Origin: Bacteroidota bacterium
Lineage (GTDB): Bacteria; Bacteroidota; Bacteroidia; J057; JADKCL01
DNA length: 30,470 nt
NCBI GenBank assembly: GCA_031375795.1
Contig: JANMIM010000558.1
Span: 1-30,470, forward strand
Direction: 5' to 3'
In this document: piece by piece, positions 1-30,470 of the stretch
How positions within the stretch are numbered: the stretch's first letter is position 1
Layout: each line of letters opens with the position of its first letter
The notes under the pieces: generated by a model
Told to the model about the DNA's origin: nothing
The model's input: only the letters and a program-made list of their open reading frames with translations
Database searches by the model: none
Made by a program: the position numbers and the translations under genes

Positions 1-512
1 CCAGCATTGGGCAGCAGGCGGCGCACATCTTGGGTGAAGCTCTGGTCGCTTGGATTTTCAAGCCGCAGCGCCCCAAAGTTGGTGCGGTAGTAGTCCATCC
101 CGCCTTGCAACCCAAAGGACAATGTGTGATCGGTACCCAGCTTGATGCGGTAGGCATATTGGGCACTCAGGCCGGTGGTCGACACGGGGCCGATACCGTC
201 TGTGCTCAGCAACATGCCAAAGCCGTTTTTCATGTTGGCGCTCGGCCCATGCAGGCTGAAGGCACCCGACCTCGGGGCACCTTGGAAACCCGTCCACTGG
301 TTGCGGCCGATCAGGCTCATGCTTGCCTGGTCACGGCTGCCGGCATAGGCAGGGTTGATGAACAGCTGGTTGAACATGTATTGGCTGTACTGCGCCTCCT
401 GCTGGGCTTTTGCGCCTTGCGGCGCAAAAAACAGAGCGAGTGGGAGTGTGAGAGCGAGGAGGATTGCCTTGCTCAGCCCAGATTTTTGCGAAGTTGTCGT
501 GTGCTTTTTCAT
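1..512 (-). CDS. porP: Type IX secretion system membrane protein, PorP/SprF family (5' part; runs off the window edge)
   Basis: Absent from the ORF track because there is no stop in the window. Hand translation from ATG at 512: MKKHTTTSQKSGLSKAILLALTLPLALFFAPQGAKA-QQEAQYSQYMFNQLFINPAYAGSRDQASMSLIGRNQWTGFQGAPRS...AQYAYRIKL...LSFGLQGG. This matches the PorP/SprF N-terminal signature (QYSQYMFN..INPAYAG...R.QW.G..GAP). It starts 15 nt after the type B CTD gene. The symbol denotes the paralogous family, not a proven orthologue. Confidence 0.93.
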   Translation of the reverse strand, partial: MKKHTTTSQKSGLSKAILLALTLPLALFFAPQGAKAQQEAQYSQYMFNQLFINPAYAGSRDQASMSLIGRNQWTGFQGAPRSGAFSLHGPSANMKNGFGMLLSTDGIGPVSTTGLSAQYAYRIKLGTDHTLSFGLQGGMDYYRTNFGALRLENPSDQSFTQDVRRLLPNA

Positions 513-527
513 TTTTCCTCCGCTTGC

Positions 528-3500
528 TTATCGGTTGATGACTACATAACCCTTGATCGGATCCTGGCCGTTGCCAAGGTCCAGGACATAAAAATAGACC
601 CCGTCGGGCAGGCTGTTGCCATTGTCCTCGTGACCATCGAATTCATTCAGGTAGGGTTCGGCGGAATAGACCTCTGCACCCCAGCGGTTGAAGATCTGCA
701 ATTGGTTTTGCGGATAATATTCGATCTCGGGCACCGTGAAGTGGTCGTTGACACCATCGCCGTTGGGGCTGATGCCTTGGTACATTTCCTCGTCGTAGAT
801 CTCCAGGTCTATGTGGAAGATGCCAGAGAGCATCTTGCAGCCATTGGTGTCGGTGACCATCACCTGGTAATTGCCAGAGGCGGTGGGCACGATCTGTGGC
901 CGCGTCTCGCCGTTGAGCAGTTGCCCGTCTTGGTACCATTGATGGTATGCCTGAGGTGTCGCGACCAACTCGATTTCCTGGTCACCCTTGGTGATGATGG
1001 CGGGTGCAGGCAGTGGATCGACGGTGACCTCGACGACATTGCTGGCGTTGGTGCAGCCAAATTGATCCGTGACGATCACTGAAACCGAGGCGTTGGCATT
1101 GACGGTGATGCTTTGGGTGGTCTGGCCATTCGATGGCCAGAAATAGCTCACATAACCAGCACCTGCGTCAAACACCATCTGGTCGCCCGCGCACAGGGAA
1201 CTGTCGATCCCCAAGTCCACCCAAGGCAGCTCGTGGCGTGTGACATTGATCTCATCTTCACCCTCGCAGCCGTTGGCGTCTGTCACCGTCACAGCAAAGG
1301 CACCCGTGTACCAGACAGGAATTGATTGAGAGGTCACGCCATTGGACCAGAGGTAGGCAGGGAATGCGCCAGCCTCGATGACCGCCGTGTCGCCTGCACA
1401 GATCGATCGATCAGCACCCAAATCTGGTACTGGCAATGGATTTTGGATCGCAACGAGGTCGGCCGTGTCTGAACACAGGTATTGGTTCCACCCAATCACG
1501 GTATAGGTACCCGGTGTGCTGACGGTGATGTCGCTGCTTGTCGCCCCGTTGTTCCAGAGGAAGGCCTGGATGCCAAGCGTCGCCGCATCGACCATCACAG
1601 TGCTCCCAATGCAAAACTCCACGGTGTCGTCAGGTGCAATGCTCAATACCGGCTTGGGGGCGAGTGGAGACTCCACGGTGTCGCTTTGGATGCAGCCATT
1701 GGTGTCCACGACCGTCACGGTGTAGGTGCCGGAGGTATTCACGACATACACCGAGTCGGTGGCTCCGTCCTGCCAGGAATAATTCACAAACTGGGGCCCG
1801 GCATGGAGGGTCAATGTGTTGAAGGGGCAGAGCCACAGGGTGTCTGGGCCCAACTGCACGCCCGGTCTGGGGAATGCCACGAATTTCTGCAGGAAAGTGT
1901 CGGAACAAGCGCTGTCGCTGATGGCGATGAAGCTCACGTCAAATGTGTCTGGATGCGGATAATAATGCATCGGGTTTTGATCGGTCGAGGAGCTTCCATC
2001 CCCAAAACTCCACTGCCAGGCAGTGACCTGGGCCGAGCCGCCGATCGTGGAGAGGTCCAGGAAGGGCACACTGTCGGGCCAGCAGATCGTGTTGGGACTA
2101 TAGCTTGCGGTCGGTTTCTCATTGGAGGTCGCCGTCAATACCAAGGTATCCATGCAAAGGCTGTCGCTCGTGACGATCAACTGCACGTTGTAGGTGCCAG
2201 CGGTGGCATACAGGTGGGTTGGGTTGGTGGTCATGGCGGTGCCGCCATCCCCAAAATCCCACTCCCAGCGCAGCATGTTTCCAAATGCCAGGCTGCTCTG
2301 ATCCATGAAGTGGATGCTGTCGGGGAAGCAAACATTGCTGAAGTTGAAATTGGCGAGTGGCTTTGGATTCCAGACCAAGGTGCGCACCAGTGTATCGAGG
2401 CAACCATTGTCGGTCGTCACGATCAGTTCCACCATGTAGGAATCCGCTGTGGCGTAGGTGTAGACTGGATTCTGTGCAGCCGAACTGCCGCCGTCTCCAA
2501 AGTCCCAGTCGTAGCCGGCAATCGTACCGGAGCTCACGGTCGAGGCGTCGATGAAATTCACGGCATCCGGTTGGCAGGTGCGGGGGAAGGAAAAGGACGC
2601 ATTCGGCTTGGGGAACACATTCACGGGTTGCACCAAGGTGTCCATGCACCCATGGTTGGTGGTGGTCACGAGCGTCACGGTGTACAAGCCGTCGAAGCTG
2701 TAGAAGTGGCTCGGATCCATTGCTTGGCTGCTGTTGCCATCACCAAATGTCCAGAGGTAGCCGGTGATCACGGAGCCGAGCACATTCGATACGCTGGAGC
2801 CGCTCACCAAGAAAAGGCTGTCGCCATAACAGATGTCGGCAATGGAGAAGACCGCATTGGGCTTGGGATAGACATTCACGTTCTTGAAGAGCGTGTCCCT
2901 GCATGCGTCGCTTGTGATCACGATCAGGCGCACGTTGTAGGCGCCCGGGATCGCATAGTTGTGAGTGGTACTCGCCCCTGTGCCCGTGTTGCCGTCGCCA
3001 AAATCCCATTGGTAGGTCGGGATCGTGGCATTGTCCCAGTTGTTGGGGATCACAGTGGCTTGCGTGAAATTCACCGTCTGCGGTTCGCAGACGTCGGCCG
3101 CGATGATCGAGTCGATCTGCGGCTTGGGCCATACATCGACCGAGCCCGTGAGCGTGTCGCGGCAATTGTCGCCTGTGCGTACAAAAAGCGTGTCGAAGTA
3201 GCGGTTGGGCACAGCGAAGTAATGGTTCAAGGTCGGCACGATACCTGTTTGGCCATCGCCAAAGCGCCAGTCCCACTGCGCGATCGTGGTCGCGTCCCAG
3301 TTGTTGGGGATCGTGGTGTTGTTGGTGAAGGAGACCAAGTTGGGCCAGCAAATGTCGCCTTCGGTGATCGAGTTGATCGAGGGCTTGGGCCAGATGTTCA
3401 CTTGGTCGACCAATGTGTCGCGGCAGGCATTTCCCGTCTGCACAAAGAGCGTGTGGGTGTAGACATTGGGCAATGCATACGTGTGAAACACAGGATTGGT

Positions 3501-5540
3501 ATTGCCTGTGCCTGCATCGCCAAAGCGCCAGTCATGAATCGTGACCGCAGCCGAGTTCCAGTTGTTGGCGATGTGATGGAAGCCAGTGAAGTTGGTGCCA
3601 TTGGGCCAGCATTGGTCGAGCACGGTCACCGAGTCGATTTCGGGCTTGGGCCAGATGCTGATGGACTGGGCCATGGTGTCGCGGCAACCATCGCTGCTCA
3701 CGACGTAGAGGCTGTCGCGGTAGAAGTTGGGCACGGCGTAGGCGTGGGTCGTCACCGAACCAGAACCCGTGGTGGCATCGCCGAAGTGCCAAGTGAAAGT
3801 GGGGATGGTGGCGCCATTCCAATTGTTGGGGATGCCGGTGGTGTTGCTGAAGCTGGCCGCCTGCGGCCAGCAGATGTCGGGGTCCGTGATCGCCGTGATG
3901 TCAGGCTTGGGCCAGACATCGACCGAACCGGCAAGGGTGTCCCTGCAGCCGACGTTGGTGGTCACGAGCAGCGACTCGGTATATTGGTTGGGGACGGCAA
4001 ATGCGTGGCTGCTGTTGCTGCCAAAGCCGTTGTTGCCATCGCCGTAGCGCCATTCGAAGGTCGTGATCGTACTGGTGTTCCAGTTGCTGGGGATCGTCGT
4101 GTTGTTGCTGTACAAGACGGCGTTGGGCCAGCAGATGTCGGTCTCGGTGACGCTGTTGATGGTCGGCTTGGGCCAGACGGCGATCGGCTCGACCAGGGTG
4201 TCTTTGCAGTTTTGGGTCGTGGTCACGATCAAGCGCAGGTTCAGGTTGGCGGCCACACTATAGCTATGTGTCGGCGTGGCGCCTGTACCCGTGGTGGCAT
4301 CGCCAAAGTCCCAAGCATACGTGCTGATCGTCGAGCCATTCAAGCCAACTGTGGCGCTGTAATTGAGCAAAGCGAATTGGCAGCCGTTGTCGGGATTGAG
4401 GGCCGTGACGTCTGGGCGTGGGTTGATGGTGATGTTTTTGGTGGCTTGCACCGAGTCGCAGGCACTGGAAAATGCGACGACCTTGAGGACGTGTACGCCG
4501 CTCGTGAAGCCCGAGGTGTTGATGGACTGCGTCGTTGCCACACCGGAGCTGCGGAAGATGTTGTCCAGGTACCAGCGGTAATTCACGTAGGGGCCAGAGG
4601 CTGTGAAGTTGAGGATGTCCTCTTCGCAGGCCGTGACCGCACCTACGGGTGAGATCGTGACGGGTGTGGTGCGGTTGAATTCCGAACCAAATGCCGTCGT
4701 AGGCTCGGCGGCGGCACGCGGGCGGTACCACACCTGCACTTGGGCGGTATTGGCGACGTTGGCGGTGAGGGGTGCGGTGTTGGGGGGAATGTCGCCTGAG
4801 CCGCTGTTCACGTTTTGGTTCAGGCCCGTGTTTTGGGCGATGTTGAGCAAGGCGGGCGTGAAGAAGCCGGGGTGACCGCCTGCATCCACCGGCAACTCTT
4901 CGACATAAAGGTTGGTACCGATCGAGACTCCGCGGCTCGTGCCCTCGGCTTGCACATACTGCGTGCCCGAGACGTTGTAGGTCGTCTTGGGTCTGAAATT
5001 GCCTACATTCGCGGAGCGCACATCCCAGCGAAAGGTCGTCGCATTCGCCGGAATCGTGTAGTTGGTGAGCTCCCAAGTGGTCGCGGCCGAGAAGCCGACC
5101 GTAGGGGCAGTCGCGACCGTGCCGACCGAGGAGAACGTATTCTGGATGAGCTGGGTGCAGGTCGTCGCATTGTCATAGTACATCACGATCTGCTTGCTGC
5201 CCAAGGCGGGTATGCTCGGGACCTTGACATAATAGACGGCAGCGGCCATCGGGAACAAATTCACATCGCTCTGCCAGTAGTTGAGCTGGGTCACGCAGTC
5301 GCTGTCGTAAAACACGAAGCCAAACCTGTTCGAGAGTTTGGCCGCCCCTTGCAAGGCTGTCGTGTTCACCGTGAATTTCACGACATAATTCGTCAAGGCC
5401 ACCGCATTCGGATTGGTGACCGTGATCGTCTGCAAAAAGGTTGGTTTCACGCACTGCGCCTTCACCAGATTGGGCACGCCCAGCCATCCCATCAGCAAGC
5501 CCAAGAGGCCTAATTTTACTATTTTCATGCTGCTTCGCAT
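528..5540 (-). CDS. T9SS cargo with type B (gliding-motility-associated) CTD: signal peptide, DUF2341-like N-terminal domain, 10 PKD domains, short Ig-like repeats
   Basis: Signal peptide ending VKA-Q. DUF2341-like segment ITVTNPNAVALTNYVVKF...FYDSDCVTQLNYW...YVKVPSIPALGSKQIVMYY. Ten W-x-[FY]-GD PKD motifs counted. C-terminus YQGISPNGDGVNDHF...IFNRWGAEVY...LPDGVYFYVL...KGYVVINR is the type B CTD pattern. The start may be ATG 5528 (MKIVK). Confidence 0.92.
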   Translation of the reverse strand: MRSSMKIVKLGLLGLLMGWLGVPNLVKAQCVKPTFLQTITVTNPNAVALTNYVVKFTVNTTALQGAAKLSNRFGFVFYDSDCVTQLNYWQSDVNLFPMAAAVYYVKVPSIPALGSKQIVMYYDNATTCTQLIQNTFSSVGTVATAPTVGFSAATTWELTNYTIPANATTFRWDVRSANVGNFRPKTTYNVSGTQYVQAEGTSRGVSIGTNLYVEELPVDAGGHPGFFTPALLNIAQNTGLNQNVNSGSGDIPPNTAPLTANVANTAQVQVWYRPRAAAEPTTAFGSEFNRTTPVTISPVGAVTACEEDILNFTASGPYVNYRWYLDNIFRSSGVATTQSINTSGFTSGVHVLKVVAFSSACDSVQATKNITINPRPDVTALNPDNGCQFALLNYSATVGLNGSTISTYAWDFGDATTGTGATPTHSYSVAANLNLRLIVTTTQNCKDTLVEPIAVWPKPTINSVTETDICWPNAVLYSNNTTIPSNWNTSTITTFEWRYGDGNNGFGSNSSHAFAVPNQYTESLLVTTNVGCRDTLAGSVDVWPKPDITAITDPDICWPQAASFSNTTGIPNNWNGATIPTFTWHFGDATTGSGSVTTHAYAVPNFYRDSLYVVSSDGCRDTMAQSISIWPKPEIDSVTVLDQCWPNGTNFTGFHHIANNWNSAAVTIHDWRFGDAGTGNTNPVFHTYALPNVYTHTLFVQTGNACRDTLVDQVNIWPKPSINSITEGDICWPNLVSFTNNTTIPNNWDATTIAQWDWRFGDGQTGIVPTLNHYFAVPNRYFDTLFVRTGDNCRDTLTGSVDVWPKPQIDSIIAADVCEPQTVNFTQATVIPNNWDNATIPTYQWDFGDGNTGTGASTTHNYAIPGAYNVRLIVITSDACRDTLFKNVNVYPKPNAVFSIADICYGDSLFLVSGSSVSNVLGSVITGYLWTFGDGNSSQAMDPSHFYSFDGLYTVTLVTTTNHGCMDTLVQPVNVFPKPNASFSFPRTCQPDAVNFIDASTVSSGTIAGYDWDFGDGGSSAAQNPVYTYATADSYMVELIVTTDNGCLDTLVRTLVWNPKPLANFNFSNVCFPDSIHFMDQSSLAFGNMLRWEWDFGDGGTAMTTNPTHLYATAGTYNVQLIVTSDSLCMDTLVLTATSNEKPTASYSPNTICWPDSVPFLDLSTIGGSAQVTAWQWSFGDGSSSTDQNPMHYYPHPDTFDVSFIAISDSACSDTFLQKFVAFPRPGVQLGPDTLWLCPFNTLTLHAGPQFVNYSWQDGATDSVYVVNTSGTYTVTVVDTNGCIQSDTVESPLAPKPVLSIAPDDTVEFCIGSTVMVDAATLGIQAFLWNNGATSSDITVSTPGTYTVIGWNQYLCSDTADLVAIQNPLPVPDLGADRSICAGDTAVIEAGAFPAYLWSNGVTSQSIPVWYTGAFAVTVTDANGCEGEDEINVTRHELPWVDLGIDSSLCAGDQMVFDAGAGYVSYFWPSNGQTTQSITVNANASVSVIVTDQFGCTNASNVVEVTVDPLPAPAIITKGDQEIELVATPQAYHQWYQDGQLLNGETRPQIVPTASGNYQVMVTDTNGCKMLSGIFHIDLEIYDEEMYQGISPNGDGVNDHFTVPEIEYYPQNQLQIFNRWGAEVYSAEPYLNEFDGHEDNGNSLPDGVYFYVLDLGNGQDPIKGYVVINR
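2874..4178 (-). repeat. Five tandem PKD units with an exact 261-nt (87-aa) period
   Basis: [VI][WY]PKP anchors begin at 4178, 3917, 3656, 3395, 3134 and 2873, each 261 nt apart. Each unit carries an I[PA][NS]NW loop. Confidence 0.9.
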
Positions 5541-5553
5541 TCCTTGATTCTAA

Positions 5554-8500
5554 TCAAAACTTTACAATCCGCACCATTTTCTGGCTCTCATTCACCTGAA
5601 TGTTCACCAGATACACGCCTGCGGCGATCTTATTGTCCAAAACAAAATCCACATGGTAGCGTTGATCCCCAGTGAGTTTACGCTGCGTCACGATCCGGCC
5701 TTGCATATCGATCACCTGGACCTTGGCATCCATGGCTCGCTTCAGGGCAATGTTCACCGCAAAGCTACCCATGTTTGGGTTTGGAAAAACCGCGACATTC
5801 AAAATATCGCCCACGCCGTTCTGGTCTGGCCCTTGATTGTACTTGCCCGAACCATTCACCACCCTGATCGTCTTCACGACGGTGTCGGCGCACCAAGCAT
5901 TGGCGGTGGCCAGGCTCACTTGGTAATAGGAGGTATCGACCAAGGTATCGTTGGCGTAGATGTGCCATGGGTAACTGGTCGAGTCACCCGTGCCGTCCCC
6001 AAAGTCCCAATAGGTCGTGGTGGGCACGGGCGTCGAGAATTCCAAGAAGTAGACGGTATCGCCAGCATTGACGACACTGGCCATGAGGAAGCGTGCTTGC
6101 AAGGCGCTATCGCCCTGATCGACGGTCATGGTGTCGCGGTACACGCAGCCTGCCGAGTCGGTGAGCGCGAGGATGTAATCCCCGGCGGCCACCCCGATGA
6201 GGCTGCTCGTCGTCGCACCATTGTTCCAGGCATAAGTATAGGGCATCGAGCCGCCAAAGGGCGTCACGATGATGGAGCCATCGGCTTGGTCGCGGCAGGT
6301 CACATCGACGATGGTCGATGCAAAGCTCAGGGTCGGCGGCTCGATCACCGTCACGCTGCCGGTCACCGTACAGCCATTGTCATCCGTCACCGTGAGTGCG
6401 TAGCTGCCAGCAGCCAGCGCATTGATGCTGCTCGTGGTGTCGCCGTTGCTCCAACTGAATTGGTAATTGCCAGTACCGCCAGCGACCAAGGCAATGGCAG
6501 CGCCATTGGCATTGCCGCCGCAGTGGACGTCGGTCGCGCTCAGGCTGGCCGTGAGCAAGGTCGGCTCGCCAATCGAGGTGGCAATGCTCGCGGTGCAACC
6601 GAGCGAGTCGGTGACGGCCACGGAGTAATTGCCGGGTGCCAATCCACTCAAGTCCTCGGTGGTCGCGCTGTTGCTCCAGAGGTAGGCGTATGGCAAAGTG
6701 CCACCGGTCGCCGTGAGGTCGATCGTGCCATCGTTGCCACCATTGCAGAGCACGTCGGTGCTGTCGATCGCGAGGCTGATCACACTCGGTTCGCTGATCG
6801 TGGCGCTGTCGATCGTCGCGCATCCACCTTGGTCAGTGACCGTTACGTAATAGGTGCCCGCAATCAATCCGCTCGGATCCTCTGAAATCTGGCCCGAGGA
6901 CCAAACATAGGTGTAGGCTGGCGTGCCACCCGACACGGTCAGGTCGATGCTGCCATCGGTCCCGCCTCCGCAGGAGATATTCACCGCCGTGTTGCTCAGC
7001 ACCAAAGCGGTGGGTTCGATCACGGCAAATGTATCGTTCAAGGTACAGCCATTGCTATCCGTCAAAACCACCGAATACGTTCCAGCGATCAAGGCGCTCA
7101 GGTCTTGGCTCGTCGCGCCATTGCTCCAGAGGTAGGCGTAAGGCAAGATTCCTCCACCGGGAATGAAGTCCACTGCACCGGTCGCGCCGCCAAAGCAGTT
7201 TTCATCCGTCACGATCCCAGCGCTTGTGAGGGCCGTCGGCTCGGTGATCAAATGGCTCAGGAAGGCTTGGCAACCGTCAAATGCGGTCACGGTCAAGTCA
7301 TAAGTTCCGGCGGCAAGGCTCGCAATCGAGAGCGTCGTCGCGCCATTGGTCCAGAGGTAGGTGAATGGCGATACGCCACCAACGAGGCTCACGTTGATGT
7401 CCCCGTCTGCGCCGCCGTTGCAGGAGACATTTGAAGCAGAGTCCAAAGTGACCGTGGGCGCACCCAAGTTGCTCACGGCTGCCGACACGGAGTCGATGCA
7501 GCCGTTGGCGTCGGTGACCAGCACTTTATAGATGCCTGCTGGGATGCCAAAGATCGAATCCAGTGTGCTGCCGACCGTTGGCCAGTTGTAGGTGTACCCG
7601 GGCGTACCGCCAGTGACATGCGCTGCGGCAGAGCCATTGCTCTGCCCGCAGGCGGCGTCCACGGTCGTTGCCGTCACCACGATGGCGCTTGGCTCGGCGA
7701 TGGTCACCGATTGGGTGGCGGTACAGCCGCTGATGTCCGTCACCGTCACGGTGAAACTCCCCGCCCCGATGCCGCTCAGGTCTTCGGTGGTGGCCGCATT
7801 GGACCATTGGTAGGTATAGGCGGGGCTGCCGCCTGTGACGCTCAGGTCGATGCTGCCGGTCGTGCCAGCATTGCAAAGCACATCGACATGGGTCTCGGTG
7901 GCGCTCAGGGTCGTGGGCGGCGTGATCACGTAGCTTGCGATGGTTTGGCAACCGTTGGCGTCGGTGACCGTGATGCCGTAGGTGCCCGCGCCGAGGCCCG
8001 TCACGTCTTGGGTGGTGGCGCCGTTGCTCCAGACATAGCTGTAAGCGGTCGTGCCGCCGCTCACGGAGATGTCGATCTGCCCATTGTTGCCGCTGGAGCA
8101 GCTGATGTTTTGCTGGCTCACGAGGCTGATGCCCAAGATGGCAGGCTCGGTGATGACGCGGCTGTCGGCGAAGTTGCAGCCATTGGTGTCGGTGACCGTC
8201 ACGGAGTAGGTGCCTGGGCCGAGGTTGCTTTGGCTGGATGTCGTGGCACCATTGCTCCACAGGTAGGTGTAGGATGGCGTGCCACCTGTTGCGCTCACGC
8301 CCACGGTGCCGTCTGCGGCGCCGTTGCATGTCACGTTCGTGCGGGCCATCGTGTGGGCGAGCACGCTGGGCTGTGTCACGACTGCGCTCGCATTGGCGAG
8401 GCAGCCGAGGGCATCGGTCACGGTCACGTTGTAGGTGCCGGGGCCGAGGTTGCTGAGATTTTGCGAGGTTGCACTGTTGCTCCAGAGGTAGGTGAATGCG

Positions 8501-10254: not shown

Positions 10255-10258
10255 GATC

Positions 10259-11434
10259 TTAGAGCTTGATTATGTAAGCGAGGACGTAGTAGGGCGGGCG
10301 GTTTTCATGCGTTTCGCCGAGGCCCCGGCTATTGGTCGTAAATTGGTGACTGTGCCACCCGTCAGTGACCGTGGATCCATAGCCATTGATGCCACAGCCG
10401 GAGCAGCTTACACTGGACACTGTAATGTTGGTGGAACCCGTGCCTCCACCACCATCATCATACCCAATGCTATGGTCATGCGAGCCATCTGTATCCGTAT
10501 TCCCAGTATGGGTATGCGTGGGCATTTGCGCCGTGGTGAGTGCAATTGAATCCACTCCTCCATTTTTACCGATCGTATTGTATTGAGAAAAATTCTTATC
10601 ACCGTTGGTATAACCGTAGTTGTTGCCATCTCCGTTGGTGAGGCCCACGACGAAGCGGCCACGCAAGTCGGGTGTGCCATTGCGGCCATCGCAGAGCGCC
10701 CAGCCTTCATATTCAGTCCCTGTGACCCCTAAACCACCAGTGAAATTGCCTGAGACAGTGCCTGACCACATAATGATGCCACCTGTGGGCACGACACCTT
10801 CGCCAATGTACTTGGTGGCGGTTACGTTGCCATCTACAAGTACATTGCTATGAAACCGCGCCCTGCTCTTGACATCCAAACCATAGCCTCCAGCGGTGCG
10901 GGTGGCAAGACCGATGCCGACCCAAGTTTGCACGATAATGCTCGAACTATTGGGGGCCACGCTGTCTTGCGTCCAGCTCGCACTGCCAAATGCAGCATTG
11001 CCGACCACCGTGAGCTTGGAGCCTGGATTCACGTTGGCTGCGGTACCAATGCCGACATTGCCGGGCACACCGGAGTAGATGTGCGTTCCCACGACCGGGC
11101 TCGCGCCAGCCACATCCTTGCGGATCCAGTCATGGTCCAGCTCAAACCACTGCCTGGGCGACTGGTGGAAGTAATAATACTTCTGCAAGTCGGTATCGAA
11201 GAAAATGAGGCCGTGGGCAATGTTTTGTGTGCTGTCGAGCACCACGCGGCTTCCCGAACTGATCTTGGGAATGATCAAGCCCTTGTTGTTGCCCGCGCCC
11301 GCCGAGATGTGCAGCATGGCTGAGGGATGGGGCGTGGTGGTGCCGACACCGATTTGGGAATAGACTCCCATATTTACCGTCAAGCATAGGTACAGCAAGA
11401 GAAACGGTGCAATTGAAGATTTGGTGAATTTCAT
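10259..11434 (-). CDS. Exported tail-fibre-like protein: signal peptide, Bacteroidota (V/I)G(I/V)GT fibre region, C-terminal phage tail-collar domain with His-x-His motifs
   Basis: Signal peptide ending VYS-Q. QIGVGTTTPHPSAMLHI...GLIIPKI...GLIFFDTD...YYYF...W. GNVGIGT and VGIGL motifs. Collar pattern VPTGGIIMWSG...GWALCDGRNGTPDLRGRFVVG...GG...L...QMPTHTH...HENRPPYYVLAYIIKL. Confidence 0.85.
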   Translation of the reverse strand: MKFTKSSIAPFLLLYLCLTVNMGVYSQIGVGTTTPHPSAMLHISAGAGNNKGLIIPKISSGSRVVLDSTQNIAHGLIFFDTDLQKYYYFHQSPRQWFELDHDWIRKDVAGASPVVGTHIYSGVPGNVGIGTAANVNPGSKLTVVGNAAFGSASWTQDSVAPNSSSIIVQTWVGIGLATRTAGGYGLDVKSRARFHSNVLVDGNVTATKYIGEGVVPTGGIIMWSGTVSGNFTGGLGVTGTEYEGWALCDGRNGTPDLRGRFVVGLTNGDGNNYGYTNGDKNFSQYNTIGKNGGVDSIALTTAQMPTHTHTGNTDTDGSHDHSIGYDDGGGGTGSTNITVSSVSCSGCGINGYGSTVTDGWHSHQFTTNSRGLGETHENRPPYYVLAYIIKL

Positions 11435-11451
11435 ATTCGAATTCCGATGAA

Positions 11452-13500: not shown

Positions 13501-16500
13501 CAATAACATCTGTCTGGATCCTCAGGGAAGCTCACCGAGCCATTCTTGACCTCGACCCCGACCGTGAGACCGATTCCGGAGCCCAAAATGCTCACTTCAC
13601 CATGAAGCTTGCCAGCCATGCACAAGTTGTCGTTGATCTTGAAGCTGAGTTCGCCGCTTACATTGACTGAGGCAAATTCATAGCTGTCGGTCACGCCCAG
13701 GGCTGTGACATCCACCCCGGCCGAGGCACCTGCGTCTGCTGAGATCGAGCCAAAGATTGCGGGATCATCAAAAGAGAGCCCGATTTCGGCGGCCACATCG
13801 AGGTGCGCCTTGGCCCAAAAATCGATCGAGCCGATACCTGCATCAAAGCCCCCACTGGTCTCCGCATGCTTGTTGATCTCGCCATGGGCCAGCAAGCCCG
13901 AGGGCCGCGCCTTGATGTAGCCACTGCTGCTCAAGGCACTGATGCAACCCAGCTCCACCTCCAGTGGATTGTTTCGGGTGCCGACATCGATGGCCCAATC
14001 ACTGCGAGAGAAAAAGCCGTCGATCTTGCCCTTGGCGCAGATGGGCTTGATCGTGCCGAAATCGGTCTTCACCGACCCCGACTCTCCCTCTAGGTGAAAC
14101 TCCATTTTCTTCTGCTGCGGATAGATCTCCATTCCCCCAAAACCACGTGCGAGGTAGGAGGAATTCGGATCCAAGCGATACGTGAAGAACCAGCCGTTGC
14201 CGTCCATCGCGATCTTGCTCACGGCGCCGCTGTTTTGCACTTCCACCCGCAAGCCTGCCATGAACATCCATTGGTACATGTTTTCAGGCAAGCCGGGGAT
14301 GCTCGGAATCGGAGGAAGATTGGGCATCGGCGGCAGGTTGTAATTGGGCAACTTGATCTTGCAGAGCGCCAAGTCATCGACCAATTTGAGGTCGCAGATG
14401 CTCGGGATGTCGATGTTGAGGCCGATGCTGCATAGCTTTTTGCTGGAGCCATCGGGCATCTTGAGCTCCATGTCGCAGATATTGGGGAGGCTCGGGAGCA
14501 GCTTGCGCCAGTTGATGTTGCACAACGGCGGCTCCTGCCCATTCAGCGGATTTTTCAGGTCGCAATACTTGAAGCTGATGTTACACAACTTGCGGTTGGA
14601 ATTGGGCCACTTCAAGTCGCAGAAGTTGAAATTGGGCCAGTCGATGTCGAAGATGCTCATCTGGCAGAACTTCTTGCCCGAGATCGGCTCCTCGAGGTCG
14701 CAGAAATTGGGGATGAGGTCGCAAGGCTTCTCGTCGGTGAGCGGGAAGCGCAGGTCGCAAAACTTGAAGTTCACGTTGCAGAGCGACTGCCCATTGACCT
14801 TCCAATCGCAGACATTCGCATTCGGCCAATCGACTTCCCACCACTTGACCTCGCAAAGCGGCACCTGCTGAATAGCGCCATTGCGCATCACGGGCACGAT
14901 GATGTCGCACCAGTTGGCGGTGATGGCGCAGAGCTTGGTCCCATTGGGCAAGCGAAAGTCGCAGGGATTGGGCACGTCGGGGAAAATGTCGGGCCAGCTC
15001 CAATCGCAGAAGACGGAGTGACCGCCAGCCTGGCTCACGAATTGGCAGAGGTCGACTTTGGGGATGATGTCGCCGACGCTGAAGTTGCAGAGGGGCTTGA
15101 TGCCGGGAAATTTCCATTCGCAAACCGGTGGCAGCGTGGGCATGAGGTTGCACAGCTTCTTGTTGCACAGGGGGCCGTTGGCATCCTTGATGTCGCAAAA
15201 CTTGCCGCCGATGTCAAAAAATTCGCAGATGCCCGAGCCGTTGGGCAGCTTGAGGTCGCAGATATTGATCTCCGAGAATCCCAATTCGCCGAGCGTGTAG
15301 TCGCCCAGTTTCTTGCCGCTGGCAAGGCGCAAGTCGCAAAACTGCAACTGTGGCCAATTCACCTTGAAGAGATCGACATCGCACCAGCTTTTGGTTTTGA
15401 TGGCGCCATTGTCCAAGTAGGGCACGTGGATGTCGCAAAGGCTCAGGCCTTCCCATGGCCACCGAATGTAGGAACAGACGCTCTTGCCCTTGTATTGCAG
15501 GTCGCAAAGACCGGGAATGTTGGGCATGATGTCGCCGATGCTCGGCAGGCCCTCGGTGATCTTGATCGGGCCGCTTTTTTGTTTTTTGCCGCTCGGCGTG
15601 TCGTGCAGGCCGAGCTTGCCATACATGCCGAGTGCCACGCCGGGTGTCACGACCAATCCGTCGATGCAATTCACGCCATTGGCGGCGGCATTCAGGTTCC
15701 AGAAGTCATTGAATTGGTTGGGCTTGGCAAATGCCATGCCGGTTGGCGCTGCCAAATTGTGGTAGGCCTGAAAGTCAAAGCCATTGAGCGAAAATGCCGG
15801 GTAGGATTCGATCACTTTGTTGAGGCCCTGAGCGGCGCAACGCAGGTACCAGAATTTAGTCCCGTTGTTTTGAGAGATCACCACACGGGCCGTGGCTACA
15901 ATCGGATCGGGCTGCTTCACCATGATATTGCCCTTGGCCTCAAACCGGGTTCCAAACACAGGGTCATCGTCGATGTAATCTGCAAACACATCCATGTCCA
16001 CGAGGCTATTGCTCATCACGAGCTTGATCGGCCCGATCCTGAACTTGGCTGATTTGGCCTTGCCATCCACGCGTGTATAGACGATGTTGGGGGCGGCGGC
16101 ACCGCCTGTACCCGCCACAGAAACCTTTATGGGCGCGCCCGGGCAGGTGATGCCACCCGGCAGACTCACTTGCGTGAACATCGTGAAGCCGTAAACGCCG
16201 TTTTCATAAAAGGCACCCACCGCATCGGCCACGCCGCTCATTCCGCCGAGGCTCACAGGCACTTGTGTCGCCAGATCACGCTTGCCATTGGGCTCATTGA
16301 AACCGATCTCGTTGTTGCCCCAGACCTTGAGACCAGGGGCATGATCGAGCTTCACCTGCATTTTGGGCCACTCCAAGTCCACATTCATCTTGATGTGGTC
16401 GCCACCTTCAAACACCGCTTGATTGATGTCGAGCTTCACCTTGCTCAAGGTGTCGAGCGGATTGTAGGTCTTGGAAAATGCCTTGAGCGAGTCCTCATTG

Positions 16501-18908
16501 AAATAAGCCCCTTGAATGCCATTGCCAGCAATCGGTGCTACCCAGTCGAGTTTGCGCTGCGCATCCAAAAAAGGCACCTTGAGAAAGCCAATAAATCTAC
16601 TGTCGCTGAGCGAATTGTCTTCGATTTTCAGGCGCAAGCTGGAAAACTTGCCCTGAAAGGTATTGATGCGCGCATAATAGGGCGCCGCGTTGCTGTTCTC
16701 AAAAGCTGCGGTCAAGTCCAGGTTGAGTCCACCTGCCGTGATCCAAGAGGGCTGGAAGCCTGGCGAACTCGAGACGTAGGTGAGCACCTGCTGCTCCGTG
16801 AGGCTCAGTTGGTTTTTTTCGTCAAAATCGGTGGGTAAGAAAATGTTGTACTCTGTGATGTACACCCCCACCCAGTCTGGCTGACCTGAGAAAATCCCCG
16901 CAGGCGACTGCCCGCCCGAGAAATCGACCACAAAGCTCTTGGGCTGCAAGGTCATCTTGGTCGCAGAAAACAGGACGAGTTTCTCGCCGCCTGCCTGCCG
17001 CTCCACGACCATGTACCATGGATTGGAGACATTTTCAAACGGCACGGAAAATGGATCGCCCGACACCGTCTTGAGATTGCCGGGGAAATAGACATTGCCG
17101 GCCATTTTCAAGGTCGTGACACCGCCTGGCGCGACGATGAACTGCGAGGGTGCCTTGTATTTGACCTTGAAGCCCATGGGAATCAAGAGGTCATAACTTT
17201 GGTTTTCGGCAAATGCGACCGCGCCGCTCAAGATTTTGTTCAGGTAATTGAGGCGCACATTTTCAGCGGAGATGACCATGGCATTGCCCGGCGCATTCAC
17301 CGACAAGGGAAAACGCCACTTTACTTGGCCTTGGGCCAGAAACTCCATCGACGTGAGCACCCAGGCATTGATTTCATAGTTGCCCTCGCCATAGTCACCA
17401 AAGTCCAGCTCCTTGCTCTCAGTGCGTGGAATCACGACCTCACCGACCTTGAGTACCCATTTGTTGGCGACCATCTCGACCGTGAGGCCGCTGTAGCTCA
17501 CCTCTGTCGGCTGCTCGCCCGTTGCCAAGACAACCTTGCCCGTGCCGGAGAGGTTGCTGTACTTGGTGGAGCTCACTTTCGTGACGCTGCTGGTATTTTC
17601 TACCGTGATCATATAGGCGCCATCGGCCACCCAAAATGAATACACGACAGGTGGCGCCTTGAACTCCCATATCTCAGACTTGGCGGTCTTGAAGCCATCG
17701 GTGCTCGACTTCACCTGCCAGGCATAGTAGGCATCGGGTTCCAGCGGCTGCTCCACTGTGAGGGAACCGCCATAGATGTTGGGCATGATGTCGGTGGAGT
17801 CGTCATACCACACGCCTTGGGTGCGCGTCATGTAGGCAGCGGCAGCGGCTTGGTTGGTCACGCGCTCGCCTGCGGCAAGTTTCACGACCTTGATGTGGTA
17901 CTTGAGCTGCTGACCTGCCGTGGCATTGCTGGGGCCTCCCCACGCAAAATCAACCTTTTCGGGGTCATCGACGCGCACTTGGTGGGCGGGTGCCGTGAGG
18001 TCGATGGTGCCGTCGTTGCTGTAACCGTAGGTAAACCAGCACACAGGCGCCTTGCCGTCGTTTTCAAAGGTCGTGAGGCCATTCACATCCACCACGCGGA
18101 TCTGGAAGGCATATTTTTGGTTCAGGTCCAGCGGCAATTGCTCGGGACCGTAGGTGAAGCTCGTAGAATTGATCTCCAGCCAATCCAGGATCGGGAACGA
18201 GGTGCCGTTGATGGCATCGTTTTCGTTCATGCCAGCGGGCACCTGCACGAGCTTCATTTCGTAGCGCACCTGGATCGAGGGGTCGTGCATCGGGATCCAG
18301 TTGAACTGGATGTTTTGGCCGCCTGCTGCGGAGATCACGGCGCCGCACTGAGGCGTCACCAGCTGTGGCGGATTGTTTTGGATCAGGGTTGCGGTGTAGC
18401 AACCCGGCAGTGCGAAGGCGATCTCGCGGCCTGCGTCGAGGACCTCGACGCAAAAGGTATAGGTGCCTTCAGGAAGGCGGCCGGCATTCACCAAGTCGTT
18501 TTTGTTGGTGCCCAATACATCCATCTTGCTGAAATCGAGGAGTTGCTCGATTTGCACGGCGTCGATGAGGTTGGGGCCGGGTGTGAGCGTCACCGTTTGA
18601 TAGTATTGACGCGAGGTCTTGAGGACCAAGCCATTGCCCTCAATCGATAGGCGGATTTTGGCATCCCAGGAGGGTTCTGATTGATCCAGAAAATTCACGT
18701 TGAGGAGGATGCGTTCCTGCCCAGGCTGCATCAGGTCGGTGAGGTAGGGTGAGTAGGGCGGCTGCACCGTGAGCTGAATGACGGCTGGATACGTCTGAGC
18801 GCTTACGCGCAGTGAGAGTGCGAGAGTGAGCGCGAGGATGGACGCTGCTACAAAGCCAACTTTGCTGAGCTTGAAAAGCGAGGGGATATGTCGTGCAGGC
18901 ATTCTCAT
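13500..18908 (-). CDS. Large exported TANFOR-domain-like protein with FN3-like domains, a beta-rich body and a Cys-rich repeat insertion
   Basis: Signal peptide ending VSA-Q. YPAVIQLTVQPPYSPYLTD...LPEGTYTFCVEVLD...NNPPQLVTP...FNWIP...FTYGP...L...KYAFQIRV...FENDG matches my recollection of TANFOR (TIGR02542) N-termini. No T9SS CTD; the protein ends PEDPDRCY. Confidence 0.8.
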   Translation of the reverse strand: MRMPARHIPSLFKLSKVGFVAASILALTLALSLRVSAQTYPAVIQLTVQPPYSPYLTDLMQPGQERILLNVNFLDQSEPSWDAKIRLSIEGNGLVLKTSRQYYQTVTLTPGPNLIDAVQIEQLLDFSKMDVLGTNKNDLVNAGRLPEGTYTFCVEVLDAGREIAFALPGCYTATLIQNNPPQLVTPQCGAVISAAGGQNIQFNWIPMHDPSIQVRYEMKLVQVPAGMNENDAINGTSFPILDWLEINSTSFTYGPEQLPLDLNQKYAFQIRVVDVNGLTTFENDGKAPVCWFTYGYSNDGTIDLTAPAHQVRVDDPEKVDFAWGGPSNATAGQQLKYHIKVVKLAAGERVTNQAAAAAYMTRTQGVWYDDSTDIMPNIYGGSLTVEQPLEPDAYYAWQVKSSTDGFKTAKSEIWEFKAPPVVYSFWVADGAYMITVENTSSVTKVSSTKYSNLSGTGKVVLATGEQPTEVSYSGLTVEMVANKWVLKVGEVVIPRTESKELDFGDYGEGNYEINAWVLTSMEFLAQGQVKWRFPLSVNAPGNAMVISAENVRLNYLNKILSGAVAFAENQSYDLLIPMGFKVKYKAPSQFIVAPGGVTTLKMAGNVYFPGNLKTVSGDPFSVPFENVSNPWYMVVERQAGGEKLVLFSATKMTLQPKSFVVDFSGGQSPAGIFSGQPDWVGVYITEYNIFLPTDFDEKNQLSLTEQQVLTYVSSSPGFQPSWITAGGLNLDLTAAFENSNAAPYYARINTFQGKFSSLRLKIEDNSLSDSRFIGFLKVPFLDAQRKLDWVAPIAGNGIQGAYFNEDSLKAFSKTYNPLDTLSKVKLDINQAVFEGGDHIKMNVDLEWPKMQVKLDHAPGLKVWGNNEIGFNEPNGKRDLATQVPVSLGGMSGVADAVGAFYENGVYGFTMFTQVSLPGGITCPGAPIKVSVAGTGGAAAPNIVYTRVDGKAKSAKFRIGPIKLVMSNSLVDMDVFADYIDDDPVFGTRFEAKGNIMVKQPDPIVATARVVISQNNGTKFWYLRCAAQGLNKVIESYPAFSLNGFDFQAYHNLAAPTGMAFAKPNQFNDFWNLNAAANGVNCIDGLVVTPGVALGMYGKLGLHDTPSGKKQKSGPIKITEGLPSIGDIMPNIPGLCDLQYKGKSVCSYIRWPWEGLSLCDIHVPYLDNGAIKTKSWCDVDLFKVNWPQLQFCDLRLASGKKLGDYTLGELGFSEINICDLKLPNGSGICEFFDIGGKFCDIKDANGPLCNKKLCNLMPTLPPVCEWKFPGIKPLCNFSVGDIIPKVDLCQFVSQAGGHSVFCDWSWPDIFPDVPNPCDFRLPNGTKLCAITANWCDIIVPVMRNGAIQQVPLCEVKWWEVDWPNANVCDWKVNGQSLCNVNFKFCDLRFPLTDEKPCDLIPNFCDLEEPISGKKFCQMSIFDIDWPNFNFCDLKWPNSNRKLCNISFKYCDLKNPLNGQEPPLCNINWRKLLPSLPNICDMELKMPDGSSKKLCSIGLNIDIPSICDLKLVDDLALCKIKLPNYNLPPMPNLPPIPSIPGLPENMYQWMFMAGLRVEVQNSGAVSKIAMDGNGWFFTYRLDPNSSYLARGFGGMEIYPQQKKMEFHLEGESGSVKTDFGTIKPICAKGKIDGFFSRSDWAIDVGTRNNPLEVELGCISALSSSGYIKARPSGLLAHGEINKHAETSGGFDAGIGSIDFWAKAHLDVAAEIGLSFDDPAIFGSISADAGASAGVDVTALGVTDSYEFASVNVSGELSFKINDNLCMAGKLHGEVSILGSGIGLTVGVEVKNGSVSFPEDPDRCY
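14361..15506 (-). repeat. 16-unit C[DEQ]x(8-16)C paired-cysteine repeat (residues about 1135-1516, 32 Cys)
   Basis: Example units: CDLQYKGKSVC, CDLKLPNGSGIC, CDFRLPNGTKLC, CDWKVNGQSLC, CDLEEPISGKKFC, CDLKWPNSNRKLC, CDLKLVDDLALC. Counted by hand. Confidence 0.9.
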
Positions 18909-18911
18909 AGC

Positions 18912-20582
18912 TCAAAAGTTGAAGGAATAACCGATCGTACCGCGCATTTCGGAGAGCTTCGTCGCATTGGTCGCGTAGGCCGACTTCCTCAGGAAATCGA
19001 TGCTGGCTGTGATGCCATGGTGCTCACCGACTTTATAGTTGCCATTGAGGCGGTTGGTCCACACGGTCGAGCTCAAGGCGGCATCGTTGAATACCGATTG
19101 AAACGATGTACGGAACGTCAATTTTGCTTTTTTCTTCAATAATCCCTTCGACACACCAAATGTCGGCCCCATGAAGGTCGTGGTCGTGCCCGGCAAAATC
19201 GTGTGGGTATAGCTCAGCATCGTGTTGAAGTCCAAGCCGAGCGATTTTTTCTTGAGTGTGTGGGCCAAGGCGACATTGTAGAAATCGGTGGCGCTCTCGG
19301 GCACGATGCTGTATTCCTTGCGTCCCACTGCGTTTTGGTAGCTTACATTGCCGCTCAGGCTCTGCTTGGCATCGTCTCCACCAAAGCTATGCATCGCATT
19401 GAAGGCGGCATTGCGGGTGACTTGGTAGAAGTTGAGCGAGTCGGTGAGAATGTTTTGGTCCACCTTGAGGAAGGAGCTGAAGTTGGAGCCGTTCAAGCTG
19501 AAGTTCCAATCTTGGCTGGGGGCGAAGCCGACATTCGCGCTGTAGATAAGGCGGCTGTTGCGGGTGGCTTTGATCTGGGCGAGGTCGTTGCGCTGCCCTC
19601 CGACGCTGGCACTCAGGCTCACCTTTTGCTTGAAGAGTGAGGTGGAGCCGTTCAAGGTCGCGTCCTCGACGTCGTTGTTGAAGAAGTAGGCGCCGAGCGT
19701 GCGGTAGTCGGTGTCGATGTGCTTGTACTTGAGCGCCAGGTTCCATGCCTTGGCCTTGTAGCCAATCTTGCCTTGGTAGGCCGCGTGGCTTGCCGAGCCG
19801 CTGCGCTGCTGGAAAAATGGGCCGAAATAGGCGAGGCTGCTGCCGCCTTCGAGGCTCGCGACCGGCCCGCGGATGTCGCGGGTGATCGCGCTCTGGGCAT
19901 ATTCGGCCTCGATGTCGAGCTTCTTGCCCAGTTTTTTCTTGCCCTTGATGCCCATGACCAAGCCCTGTTCCGGAGTAACGTCGGCACTGGCGACCGGTGT
20001 CGCAATGGAGTTGATTTGGTCTTTTGCGGTGAAAATGGAGCCCTCGATGCCGTTGCCATTCTTCTCATAGCCGACCATGAGGCCGACGCCCATGCGCTTG
20101 TAGGCAGTGGTGGCACCATTGGCGAGGGCCTCGGCCTCCTCGATGGGTTTCCTGAAACGACCTGCCATCGCCGAGATTTTCCAATTCTTGGGTGTAAGGT
20201 CCACCCCGCCGCCCAAGAAAGTATGCCCTGCGAGCGTAAAGTCGCTGAAGGTCATGCTGCGCCACCCAATATGGGTCGTGATCCACTTGTATTTTGGGGA
20301 AATGCCGACTTGGTTGAAGGGCTGGGTGAAGCCGGCCTGTTGCTGACTGAAGCTGGCGCTGAAAGGTGCATCGATCACCCCGAGGAGTTTCAGGTTGAGA
20401 TTGGCTTGGAGTGCGTAGGTGAATGGTGGACGGCGACTCGGTGCCCCAAATGCCGTGTAGAAGCCTGTATTGATGTTTGCACCCCCTGAAATCTTAAGCG
20501 GATGCTTAAAATCGAACTCTTGCGCCCAGAGGGAGCTGGTGCACAAGAGTAACAGAAATACTATGAAGTAACTTCGTTTCAA
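18912..20582 (-). CDS. Outer-membrane beta-barrel protein of unknown function
   Basis: Signal peptide ending LWA-Q. Alternating hydrophobic/aromatic strands throughout. C-terminal IGYSFNF with a terminal Phe (BAM beta-signal type). TTG start; 3 nt separate its stop from the TANFOR ATG. Confidence 0.82.
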   Translation of the reverse strand: MKRSYFIVFLLLLCTSSLWAQEFDFKHPLKISGGANINTGFYTAFGAPSRRPPFTYALQANLNLKLLGVIDAPFSASFSQQQAGFTQPFNQVGISPKYKWITTHIGWRSMTFSDFTLAGHTFLGGGVDLTPKNWKISAMAGRFRKPIEEAEALANGATTAYKRMGVGLMVGYEKNGNGIEGSIFTAKDQINSIATPVASADVTPEQGLVMGIKGKKKLGKKLDIEAEYAQSAITRDIRGPVASLEGGSSLAYFGPFFQQRSGSASHAAYQGKIGYKAKAWNLALKYKHIDTDYRTLGAYFFNNDVEDATLNGSTSLFKQKVSLSASVGGQRNDLAQIKATRNSRLIYSANVGFAPSQDWNFSLNGSNFSSFLKVDQNILTDSLNFYQVTRNAAFNAMHSFGGDDAKQSLSGNVSYQNAVGRKEYSIVPESATDFYNVALAHTLKKKSLGLDFNTMLSYTHTILPGTTTTFMGPTFGVSKGLLKKKAKLTFRTSFQSVFNDAALSSTVWTNRLNGNYKVGEHHGITASIDFLRKSAYATNATKLSEMRGTIGYSFNF

Positions 20583-20641: not shown

Positions 20642-20649
20642 CAAAAGTA
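20642..20649 (-). promoter_or_regulatory. Candidate Bacteroidota sigma-A -7 box (TACTTTTG) for the seven-gene operon
   Basis: Exact TAnnTTTG match about 60 nt upstream of the first start codon. No canonical -33 TTTG at the usual 19-21 nt spacing. Confidence 0.5.
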
Positions 20650-23967: not shown

Positions 23968-24052
23968 TTTTCAAAGTCGCCTTTTAGCCTTGACACGACA
24001 CTAGAGTCGTGTCAAGTTCAACACAGGCGTTTCAACAAGAAATGGTTTGTTG

Positions 24053-30467: not shown

Positions 30468-30470
30468 AAG

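Follow-up and report, generated by a model that had tools for sequence, protein, structure and literature searches.

Gene content of the window

The DNA analysed here (the window) was a complete contig of 30,470 bp from a Bacteroidota metagenome-assembled genome (6.8 Mb, 93% complete), and the sequencing runs that matched it were almost exclusively DNA runs from freshwater sediment, with no RNA run among them. The window carries a run of seven minus-strand genes, which encode an outer-membrane beta-barrel, a giant exported protein with a TANFOR-type N-terminal head, an FN3-array protein, a phage-like fibre protein, two type IX secretion system (T9SS) cargo proteins and a PorP/SprF-family protein. 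Comparison of this run across the Bacteroidota showed that the barrel, the giant and the FN3 protein form a phylum-wide cassette, and that the fibre, both T9SS cargos and PorP/SprF are kept only in the family and in a few other lineages.

The initial annotation had described seven co-oriented genes with tight gaps and a signal peptide on every product, of which only two had a T9SS C-terminal domain (CTD) and three exported proteins had none. The map of open reading frames (ORFs) and the analysis of the N-termini bore this out. The intergenic gaps across the run were 3, -10, 17, 4, 13, and 15 nt, and choosing later ATG codons turned two of them into 44 and 31 nt. All seven N-termini had basic residues, a 12-residue hydrophobic core (mean Kyte-Doolittle value 2.0-2.7) and an A-x-A/AQ-type cleavage site. 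The Pfam and NCBIfam profile scores assigned a type A CTD to the SprB-repeat protein and a type B CTD to the PKD protein, and no CTD model matched the giant or the FN3 and fibre proteins. The order and orientation of the seven genes stood as annotated, but a co-oriented two-component system further upstream (20947-23996), a histidine kinase and a response regulator that are part of the conserved block, had been omitted. The spacing and synteny of the seven genes suggest that they form an operon. Scans of the window for sigma-70 promoters and terminators stayed at chance level (15 terminator-like hairpins were found and 19.6 were expected), and such models are ill-suited to Bacteroidota. The features of the window are listed in Table 1.

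Table 1. Position, strand and supporting evidence of genes, domains and candidate sites in the window
Feature	Coordinates	Strand	Evidence
Outer-membrane beta-barrel, 556 aa, TTG start, signal peptide	18912..20582	-	AlphaFold2 and structure comparison
Giant exported protein, 1802 aa, signal peptide	13500..18908	-	No family match (Pfam, NCBIfam, PDB)
TANFOR-type N-terminal module of giant, residues ~38-300	18009..18797	-	Transitive homology
Paired-cysteine repeat region of giant, residues ~1130-1530	14319..15521	-	Lineage-specific insert
All-beta C-terminal domain of giant, residues ~1545-1802, four conserved Cys	13503..14276	-	Hidden Markov model (HMM), AlphaFold2
FN3-array protein, 685 aa, signal peptide	11452..13509	-	fn3 8e-16
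Phage tail-collar-fibre-like protein, 391 aa, signal peptide, no CTD	10259..11434	-	PHROG, PDB
Fibre tip domain, residues 212-391, HxH motifs HTH, HDH, HSH	10262-10801	-	Homology and sequence reading
SprB-repeat adhesin-like protein, 1566 aa, T9SS type A cargo	5554..10254 (CTD 5569-5790)	-	Pfam/NCBIfam
DUF2341 and ~10 PKD repeats, 1670 aa, T9SS type B cargo	528..5540 (CTD 537-785)	-	Pfam/NCBIfam
PorP/SprF-family T9SS outer-membrane protein, first 170 aa only	3..512	-	PF11751 8.9e-39
Candidate TAnnTTTG -7 box, TACTTTTG	20642..20649	-	Motif match
Candidate regulator-binding site, two GGA(A/T)CA(T/A) boxes: CGGATCAT (20705-20698), GGGAACAA (20684-20677)	20677..20705	-	Comparison of five spacers
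LytTR-family response regulator, overlaps kinase stop by 4 nt	20947..21648	-	Response_reg 1.8e-21, LytTR 2.9e-11
Sensor histidine kinase, first gene of conserved block	21645..23996	-	HisKA_2 1.6e-24, TPR_12 1e-19, HATPase_c 1.5e-8
IS66-family transposase C-terminal remnant	~24124-24234	+	Low-G+C stretch
181-aa ORF, no family	24555-25100	-	Low-G+C stretch
Type III restriction-modification pair	res 25187-28156, mod 28162-30213	both -	Low-G+C stretch

The outer-membrane barrel

The proposal that a beta-barrel opens the run was confirmed by an AlphaFold2 model built from a 98-sequence alignment, which had a predicted local distance difference test score (pLDDT) of 91.1, a predicted template modelling score (pTM) of 0.79 and 25 long strands by DSSP. 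The model formed a barrel of about 25-26 strands, which began directly after the signal peptide and ended in a C-terminal Phe, and it showed neither a plug nor a periplasmic domain. The closest structure was MtrB (6r2q_B), with Z 19.9 over 452 residues and a Foldseek E value of 1e-9, and ushers, LptD, TonB-dependent receptors and SprA ranked below it. The barrel sequence had no match in Pfam, NCBIfam or PDB even at permissive thresholds. Its family comprised 2017 clusters at 50% identity with E<=1e-3, or 1014 with E<=1e-30. No dedicated curated model covers this family, and the generic model PF14905 was matched by only 2 of 59 members.

Known barrel classes were considered and rejected. The idea that the barrel is usher-like was abandoned, as the model lacks a plug and periplasmic domains and no chaperone gene lies in the window; FimD and PapC stood only in the middle of the list of structure matches (Z 12-15), and no usher or chaperone Pfam match was found. 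A TpsB/Omp85 identity was rejected on the strand number (25, not 16) and on the lack of Bac_surface_Ag, POTRA or TPS matches, and a TonB-dependent or SusC-type identity on the lack of a Plug or TonB_dep_Rec match and of a plug in the model. The barrel had no sequence relation to the PorV, PorP, PorQ or PorT models, and PorV/PorP identity was rejected as well. The 'DUF5723' label given in the Atlas is an automatic cluster name, and a DUF5723 identity was unsupported by sequence.

Longer members of the barrel family were also seen. ORFs of about 820 aa (L035 15611-18079, and others in G062, G087, G091, G279, G283, G395, and G431) carry an extension of about 250 aa C-terminal to the barrel, and some longer members carry LysM, Big_9 or cadherin-like domains.

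The giant protein and its TANFOR-type head

The second gene encodes a large protein with a Sec signal peptide in a genome that has SprA and thus the T9SS. Its layout was a signal peptide, a TANFOR-type head, an FN3-like module, a body of about 700 aa, a Cys-repeat insert and a beta-rich C-terminal domain. Full-length homologues were few (9 clusters), and the head was the only portion common across the phylum. The giant did not match the TANFOR model TIGR02542 even at E<=10, nor any Pfam model. However, BLASTP aligned its head at about 30% identity with those of proteins 1900-2100 aa long, from Spirosoma and others, and TIGR02542 was matched by 9 of 11 homologous N-terminal modules, with a best E value of 3e-12. 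A paralogue in the same genome, 62% identical to the giant, reached 34.1 bits, which is below the membership cut-off of 67 bits. The TANFOR scaffold named in the initial annotation is therefore borne by most of the homologous heads but not matched by the window giant itself. Because its homology to TIGR02542 is by transitivity only, the giant was filed as TANFOR-like, and its head was treated as a diverged TANFOR head.

The C-terminal part of the giant was conserved rather than variable. Within the clade, segment 1130-1802 was 41-93% identical. The HMM of the Cys-repeat region matched only proteins of the same genus, the in-genome paralogue and the giant of one sister genus (G006). The G001 giant has no Cys-repeat region, yet it keeps the C-terminal domain, and the HMM of that domain recovered every full-length homologue (E 3e-149 to 3e-128) together with the G001 giant (1e-26). 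The AlphaFold2 model of the C-terminal 673 residues had an overall pLDDT of 60.5; the Cys-repeat region was modelled poorly (pLDDT 35-80), and the last domain formed long antiparallel hairpins (pLDDT about 65-78). The best structure matches of the last domain were segments of outer-membrane barrels with Z 8.6 or less. This is the background level, so no fold was claimed.

No toxin domain was found in the giant by Pfam and NCBIfam searches, and Pfam toxins were absent from the last 500 aa of 10 diverse giants. The start of the FN3 gene overlaps the stop of the giant gene by 10 nt, which leaves no room for an immunity gene. By the published criterion (PMC7073777), a TANFOR-class polymorphic toxin was rejected for the window giant, which has a conserved C-terminus, no toxin family and no downstream immunity ORF. 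The window giant is thus probably toxin-less, as judged from its sequence.

The gene of the paralogous giant lies on another contig of the same genome, C103, with its own FN3 gene (L017 1-6698), and its product has the same Cys-repeat region and C-terminal domain. Neither a barrel gene nor two-component genes lie upstream of it; their place is taken by the gene of a T9SS type A PKD/SBBP protein and by non-coding DNA of about 940 nt. At about 7096-7410 of L017, a short ORF repeats the last ~25 residues of the type A CTD that ends the 1360-aa neighbour (ADLPAGYYICELRLGK...). This ORF resembles a scar of duplication, left by a rearrangement immediately upstream of the paralogous giant.

Conservation of the block across Bacteroidota

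The full order of histidine kinase, response regulator, barrel, giant, FN3 protein, one or two fibre genes, SprB-repeat protein, PKD protein and PorP recurred, at 44-93% identity, in three further genomes of the genus and in a single genome from another genus. At 25-35% identity (L021 and L004), the barrel, giant, FN3 protein and fibre persisted. In other families, in Spirosoma harenae and on an unrelated 1.5-Mb contig, only the barrel, the giant and usually the FN3 protein were left, and the kinase and LytTR regulator were retained with the block only at the family level. Among 20 loci from diverse Bacteroidota genomes, 19 held a barrel and a giant. A homologue of the FN3 protein (BLASTP) was directly behind the giant in 18 of these 19 loci, and fibre or SprB-type genes were present in just two. 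The seven genes are thus not one co-conserved unit, as only the barrel, giant and FN3 protein travel together phylum-wide. Since most loci have no fibre, cargos or PorP, those parts are dispensable for the core.

The association of barrel and giant was also surveyed in 401 genomes that sample the phylum evenly. Of these, 77 carried the barrel and 67 the TANFOR module, and 63 carried both. A TANFOR module started at most about 1 kb downstream on the same strand in 51 of the 72 full-length matches to the barrel (hand count), and about 11 more TANFOR modules were within about 10-16 kb of barrel matches. In two genera, single ORFs of 954 aa (L054 6927-9788) and 949 aa (L055 10639-13485) combined a signal peptide, a TANFOR module and a barrel. 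Behind these fusion ORFs came free TANFOR giants, one or two in number, and in L054 an FN3 protein too. The data showed that a dedicated barrel is very likely tied to the TANFOR giant, and this link is well supported.

The reverse order was seen in L056 (5427-10273), where a 962-aa TANFOR protein precedes a 708-aa barrel-like protein.

Predicted complex of the barrel and the TANFOR head

A complex of barrel residues 21-556 and giant residues 38-430 was predicted using custom alignments. The barrel and the TANFOR head scored 0.52, and the best of three controls scored 0.00. Among solved complexes, 58 of 80 attained this mark, as did 2 of 110 mismatched pairs, but passes of 0.60 or less are weak. 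The contacting barrel residues alternated along at least 8 strands and were mostly on the more polar face, so the model places the head inside the barrel lumen. Examples of barrel residues that face the lumen are positions 57-79, 340-344 and 385-463. Given the prior from synteny and fusions, the prediction was taken as modest support for docking; by itself the model lends weak support to a TANFOR head that may dock in the lumen. The initial annotation had suggested a barrel-dependent route beside the T9SS. The part that stood is the tie between barrel and giant, seen in adjacency, fusions and the weak complex prediction, but the route itself is an inference.

FN3 protein, fibre protein and T9SS cargos

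The fibre protein was first described as ending in a phage-like tip, and this was borne out by homology and by its HxH motifs. The tip matched PHROG 8763 (2e-25) and PHROG 1800, 'tail collar fiber' (1.7e-23), and in the PDB it matched 6OV6 (7e-9) and 9QGO (1e-6), the former being the receptor-binding protein of a Bizionia prophage (JUB59 C24) with HxH iron sites. Its orthologues bear PF26696 (PTL_trimer). The Pfam gathering scores of Collar (PF07484, E 9.6) and Gp10_C (PF21939, 25.4 bits and a threshold of 27) were not reached.

The two cargos and PorP/SprF passed curated cut-offs, in line with the description of the locus as a mixture of standard T9SS cargo (type A, and type B with a co-encoded PorP/SprF) and exported proteins that have no CTD. 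The SprB-repeat protein contained 11 stretches of SprB repeat (3.7e-116), and its type A CTD (residues 1489-1562 of 1566) matched PF18962 (3e-14; 53.4 bits, cut-off 27) and TIGR04183 (51.4 bits, cut-off 23). The PKD protein matched PKD_4 (9e-111), and its type B CTD matched PF13585 (CHU_C; 3.9e-27; 94.6 bits, cut-off 27) and TIGR04131 (46.4 bits, cut-off 35). The PorP/SprF gene begins 15 nt past the stop of the type B cargo and matched TIGR03519 with 143.7 bits (cut-off 90.55). Its frame in the window is incomplete because the contig ends; orthologous frames are 309-343 aa, and full-length copies stand behind the type B cargo in G003-G006.

Two-component system and the spacer before the barrel

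Orthologues of the kinase were at the same position in G003, G004, G005, G006, L001, and L002. Within the genus and family, the LytTR regulator kept its place upstream of the barrel, and distant loci have a GerE-type regulator there. We compared the spacers between regulator and barrel in five orthologous loci. Two GGA(A/T)CA(T/A) boxes, exactly 21 bp apart from start to start in all five, and a TAnnTTTG box were the only features in common. In the window, the TAnnTTTG box follows the second GGA box by 28 nt and precedes the start codon of the barrel gene by 60 nt. It was exact in three of the five spacers (the window, G003, and G004), and had one mismatch in G005 (TACCTTTA) and two in L002. 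A direct repeat with 21-bp geometry is established for LytTR regulators such as AgrA, and TAnnTTTG is the consensus of the Bacteroidota -7 promoter motif. The arrangement fits with control of the block by the adjacent two-component system, which may act through the GGA boxes.

The window spacer, at 365 nt, is more than twice as long as the orthologous spacers. It also contains a perfect 8-bp inverted repeat at 20669-20690 (GTTTGGGA, a 6-nt spacer, TCCCAAAC), which overlaps the second conserved GGAACA box and is not conserved in the orthologous spacers. At its N-terminal end (23600-23996), the called kinase ORF, which has 783 aa and a GTG start, exceeds its orthologues (655-700 aa) by about 100-140 aa. 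Since the ORF abuts the IS66 remnant, the true start may lie further downstream.

Published TANFOR proteins and known systems

Jana, Salomon and Bosis (2020) collected 339 TANFOR proteins, 87% of them with Sec signals, and proposed that they are a class of polymorphic toxins (PMC7073777). SprB, FN3, PKD and Por_Secre_tail domains were enriched around the TANFOR genes, with P 2e-87 for SprB and CTD; the T9SS was present in more than 95% of TANFOR genomes, and export by the T9SS was hypothesised (PMC7073777). The TANFOR neighbourhoods were thus published in 2020, and the view that this gene set had no functional description had to be withdrawn. TANFOR proteins were found in about 6% of RefSeq Bacteroidetes genomes (PMC7073777), and a TANFOR-type module was present in about 17% of the genomes in our sample of 401.

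In the supplementary table of that study, the protein directly upstream of the TANFOR gene in Chitinophaga, Tannerella forsythia, Pedobacter, Spirosoma, Runella and Lewinella is domain-less and 548-593 aa long, and a signal peptide is predicted for most of these proteins; some of the TANFOR genes carry toxins and immunity genes (PMC7073777). One entry is Chitinophaga pinensis DSM 2588, with a toxin-deaminase TANFOR protein and an upstream protein of 581 aa (PMC7073777). A protein of about 660-725 aa, often annotated FN3, is listed downstream of TANFOR genes (PMC7073777). The text of the study makes no mention of a barrel, an outer-membrane partner, tail fibres, PorP or a two-component system (PMC7073777), and no later paper extending the TANFOR work was found in the literature searched. 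The unpublished element is the barrel as a candidate export or anchoring partner of TANFOR giants.

The same table lists a different arrangement for Cellulophaga, Aquimarina and Tenacibaculum, with a 447-455-aa PKD lipoprotein upstream of the TANFOR gene and a domain-less protein of about 750-800 aa downstream (PMC7073777). The latter may belong to the same barrel-like family as the protein of L056.

The window resembles the published TANFOR class in its large Sec-exported protein, with a TANFOR-type and then an FN3-like module at the N-terminus, in its T9SS-bearing genome, in its SprB-repeat, FN3, PKD and Por_Secre_tail neighbours, and in the upstream (~550-590 aa) and downstream (~660-725 aa) proteins. 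In contrast to that class, the window giant has no TIGR02542 match, toxin, variable C-terminus or immunity gene, and it has the Cys-repeat insert.

Other known systems were also compared with the locus. LptD-LptE and MtrB-MtrA are like the barrel in having a wide single-chain outer-membrane barrel of 26 strands with a separately encoded guest in the lumen. However, there is no sequence homology, the window has no LptD jellyroll, cytochromes or lipoprotein partner, and its guest would be a head belonging to a surface protein of 1800 aa. The likeness is one of working principle only. Type V secretion (two-partner TpsB/TpsA pairs such as FhaC/FHA and CdiB/CdiA, and inverse autotransporters) likewise has an outer-membrane barrel gene directly ahead of a giant with a signature N-terminal module; it shares polymorphic C-terminal toxins and immunity genes with the TANFOR relatives, and the fusions of barrel and head recall autotransporters. 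However, the window barrel has about 25-26 strands instead of 16, no POTRA or TPS domain and no Omp85 likeness, and the cassette has a third obligatory gene, FN3, and is confined to the Bacteroidota group. In its gene for a type B CTD protein followed by PorP/SprF, with a type A cargo alongside, the locus is an ordinary member of the kind represented by SprB-SprF of Flavobacterium johnsoniae. The fibre shares a homologous HxH tip domain with phage tail-collar tips (6OV6; the C-terminal type of T4 gp12/gp10), but it has a Sec signal peptide and stands in a run of cellular genes, with no phage genes in the window.

Proposed organisation of the block and alternatives

The block is probably modular rather than a single machine of seven parts, although we hold this with limited confidence. 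It would consist of a core (barrel, TANFOR giant and FN3 protein), a family-specific accessory module and a regulator. The barrel, giant and FN3 protein would all be exported by Sec, and the plug-less barrel of about 26 strands would be inserted in the outer membrane. There it could serve as a dedicated dock or conduit for the N-terminal TANFOR head of the giant, as LptD does for LptE and MtrB for MtrA, and the remaining ~1500 residues (the body, the Cys-repeat stalk and the beta-rich end) would be displayed outside the cell. The FN3 protein would be an obligatory accessory of this core. The accessory module would comprise a trimeric fibre of the tail-collar type and two long Ig-repeat adhesins exported by the T9SS, the type B adhesin being anchored through its own PorP/SprF. 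The TPR kinase and LytTR regulator might switch the block on through the direct repeat with 21-bp spacing ahead of the TAnnTTTG promoter. The output would be a regulated apparatus for cell-surface contact and adhesion. Since some published relatives carry C-terminal toxins and the window giant has none, adhesion or target binding is likelier here than intoxication.

Several observations weigh against this organisation. The complex score falls in the weak band, and the alignment of the TANFOR chain was shallow (11 rows). The window giant is below every TANFOR model threshold. The giant and FN3 genes of C103 have no adjacent barrel, and the assembly, which is 93% complete, yielded only a single barrel gene; one-to-one pairing is thus not obligatory. 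Conversely, L034 has a barrel without an adjacent giant, and some loci place the barrel behind the giant. SprA was present in all 63 genomes that bear the pair, so dependence on the T9SS stays compatible with the data. The roles given above to the FN3 and fibre proteins are guesses.

We also considered whether all seven products make one appendage, with the barrel as base, the giant and FN3 protein as shaft, the T9SS cargos as stalks and a trimeric receptor-binding tip, for adhesion or prey capture. The tight spacing in one orientation and the conservation of the full order in two genera agree with a single appendage, as do the homology of the fibre tip to a solved phage receptor-binding protein, the published enrichment of SprB and CTD around TANFOR genes, and the recurrence of fibre-like genes behind FN3 in distant loci (a Peptidase_S74 fibre in L004, two fibre-like genes in L021, and one in L036). 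However, most barrel-giant-FN3 loci of the phylum are without fibre, SprB/PKD cargo and PorP, and the type B cargo and PorP are a known pair that is sufficient in itself; a single appendage is therefore unlikely. We consider it about equally improbable that the giant is a non-canonical T9SS substrate, as hypothesised in the published work, with the barrel acting as a T9SS-associated shuttle or anchor (a PorV/PorP-like role) or being an unrelated upstream porin. This would agree with the T9SS in nearly all TANFOR genomes and the T9SS cargo enriched nearby (PMC7073777), with the two T9SS cargos and PorP of the locus itself, and with the distribution of SprA, as the barrel-TANFOR pair was absent from all 89 SprA-negative genomes. 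However, 87 of these 89 genomes belong to one family, so the co-occurrence is weak and does not discriminate for T9SS dependence. The giant also has no CTD of either type, and the barrel is unrelated in sequence to the Por models. The empty lumen of the ~26-strand barrel, the TANFOR-barrel fusions and the predicted docking in the lumen better fit a direct partnership of barrel and giant.

Chance or selfish clustering of independent surface proteins, with the barrel as a general diffusion or nutrient channel, was judged very improbable. Large repeat adhesins are plentiful in Bacteroidota genomes, and the orphan barrel of L034 and the barrel-less giant of C103 agree with the absence of a functional unit. 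However, the three protein families remain neighbours across many taxonomic families at identities as low as 20-30%, fusion ORFs exist, the genes are 3 nt apart or overlap, and the barrel lacks a TonB plug or SusD-type partner of the kind that would point to uptake.

A barrel that receives the head of the giant would bear on the broader question of how TANFOR proteins cross the outer membrane, for which the T9SS is the sole proposal so far; the barrel is a testable candidate route for the giants and their toxins. It is conceivable, though we would put it at somewhat below an even chance, that the barrel, TANFOR head and FN3 protein constitute an undescribed pathway of outer-membrane export or display, separate from the T9SS and type V secretion, whose giants are polymorphic toxins elsewhere and here bear a Cys-repeat stalk, possibly with a phage-type fibre; this locus would then be a case of the pathway under a LytTR two-component switch and in coupling with T9SS adhesins. 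Should the barrel be the route, this would amount to a new mechanism for displaying very large proteins on the outer membrane in an ecologically and medically important phylum, in which the carriers of the cassette include Tannerella forsythia, Chitinophaga and Flavobacterium. To this the window adds an adhesin-type version that is probably without a toxin, a plausible regulatory switch, and a family-level link to phage-type fibres and T9SS cargos.

DNA upstream of the block

Beyond the kinase gene, from 24000 to 30470, the G+C content dropped from about 0.57 to about 0.40. This stretch is outside the system described above, and its origin is either the horizontal acquisition of an island or a chimeric join within the contig. 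It contains the IS66-family remnant, the ORF without a family and the type III restriction-modification pair listed in Table 1.

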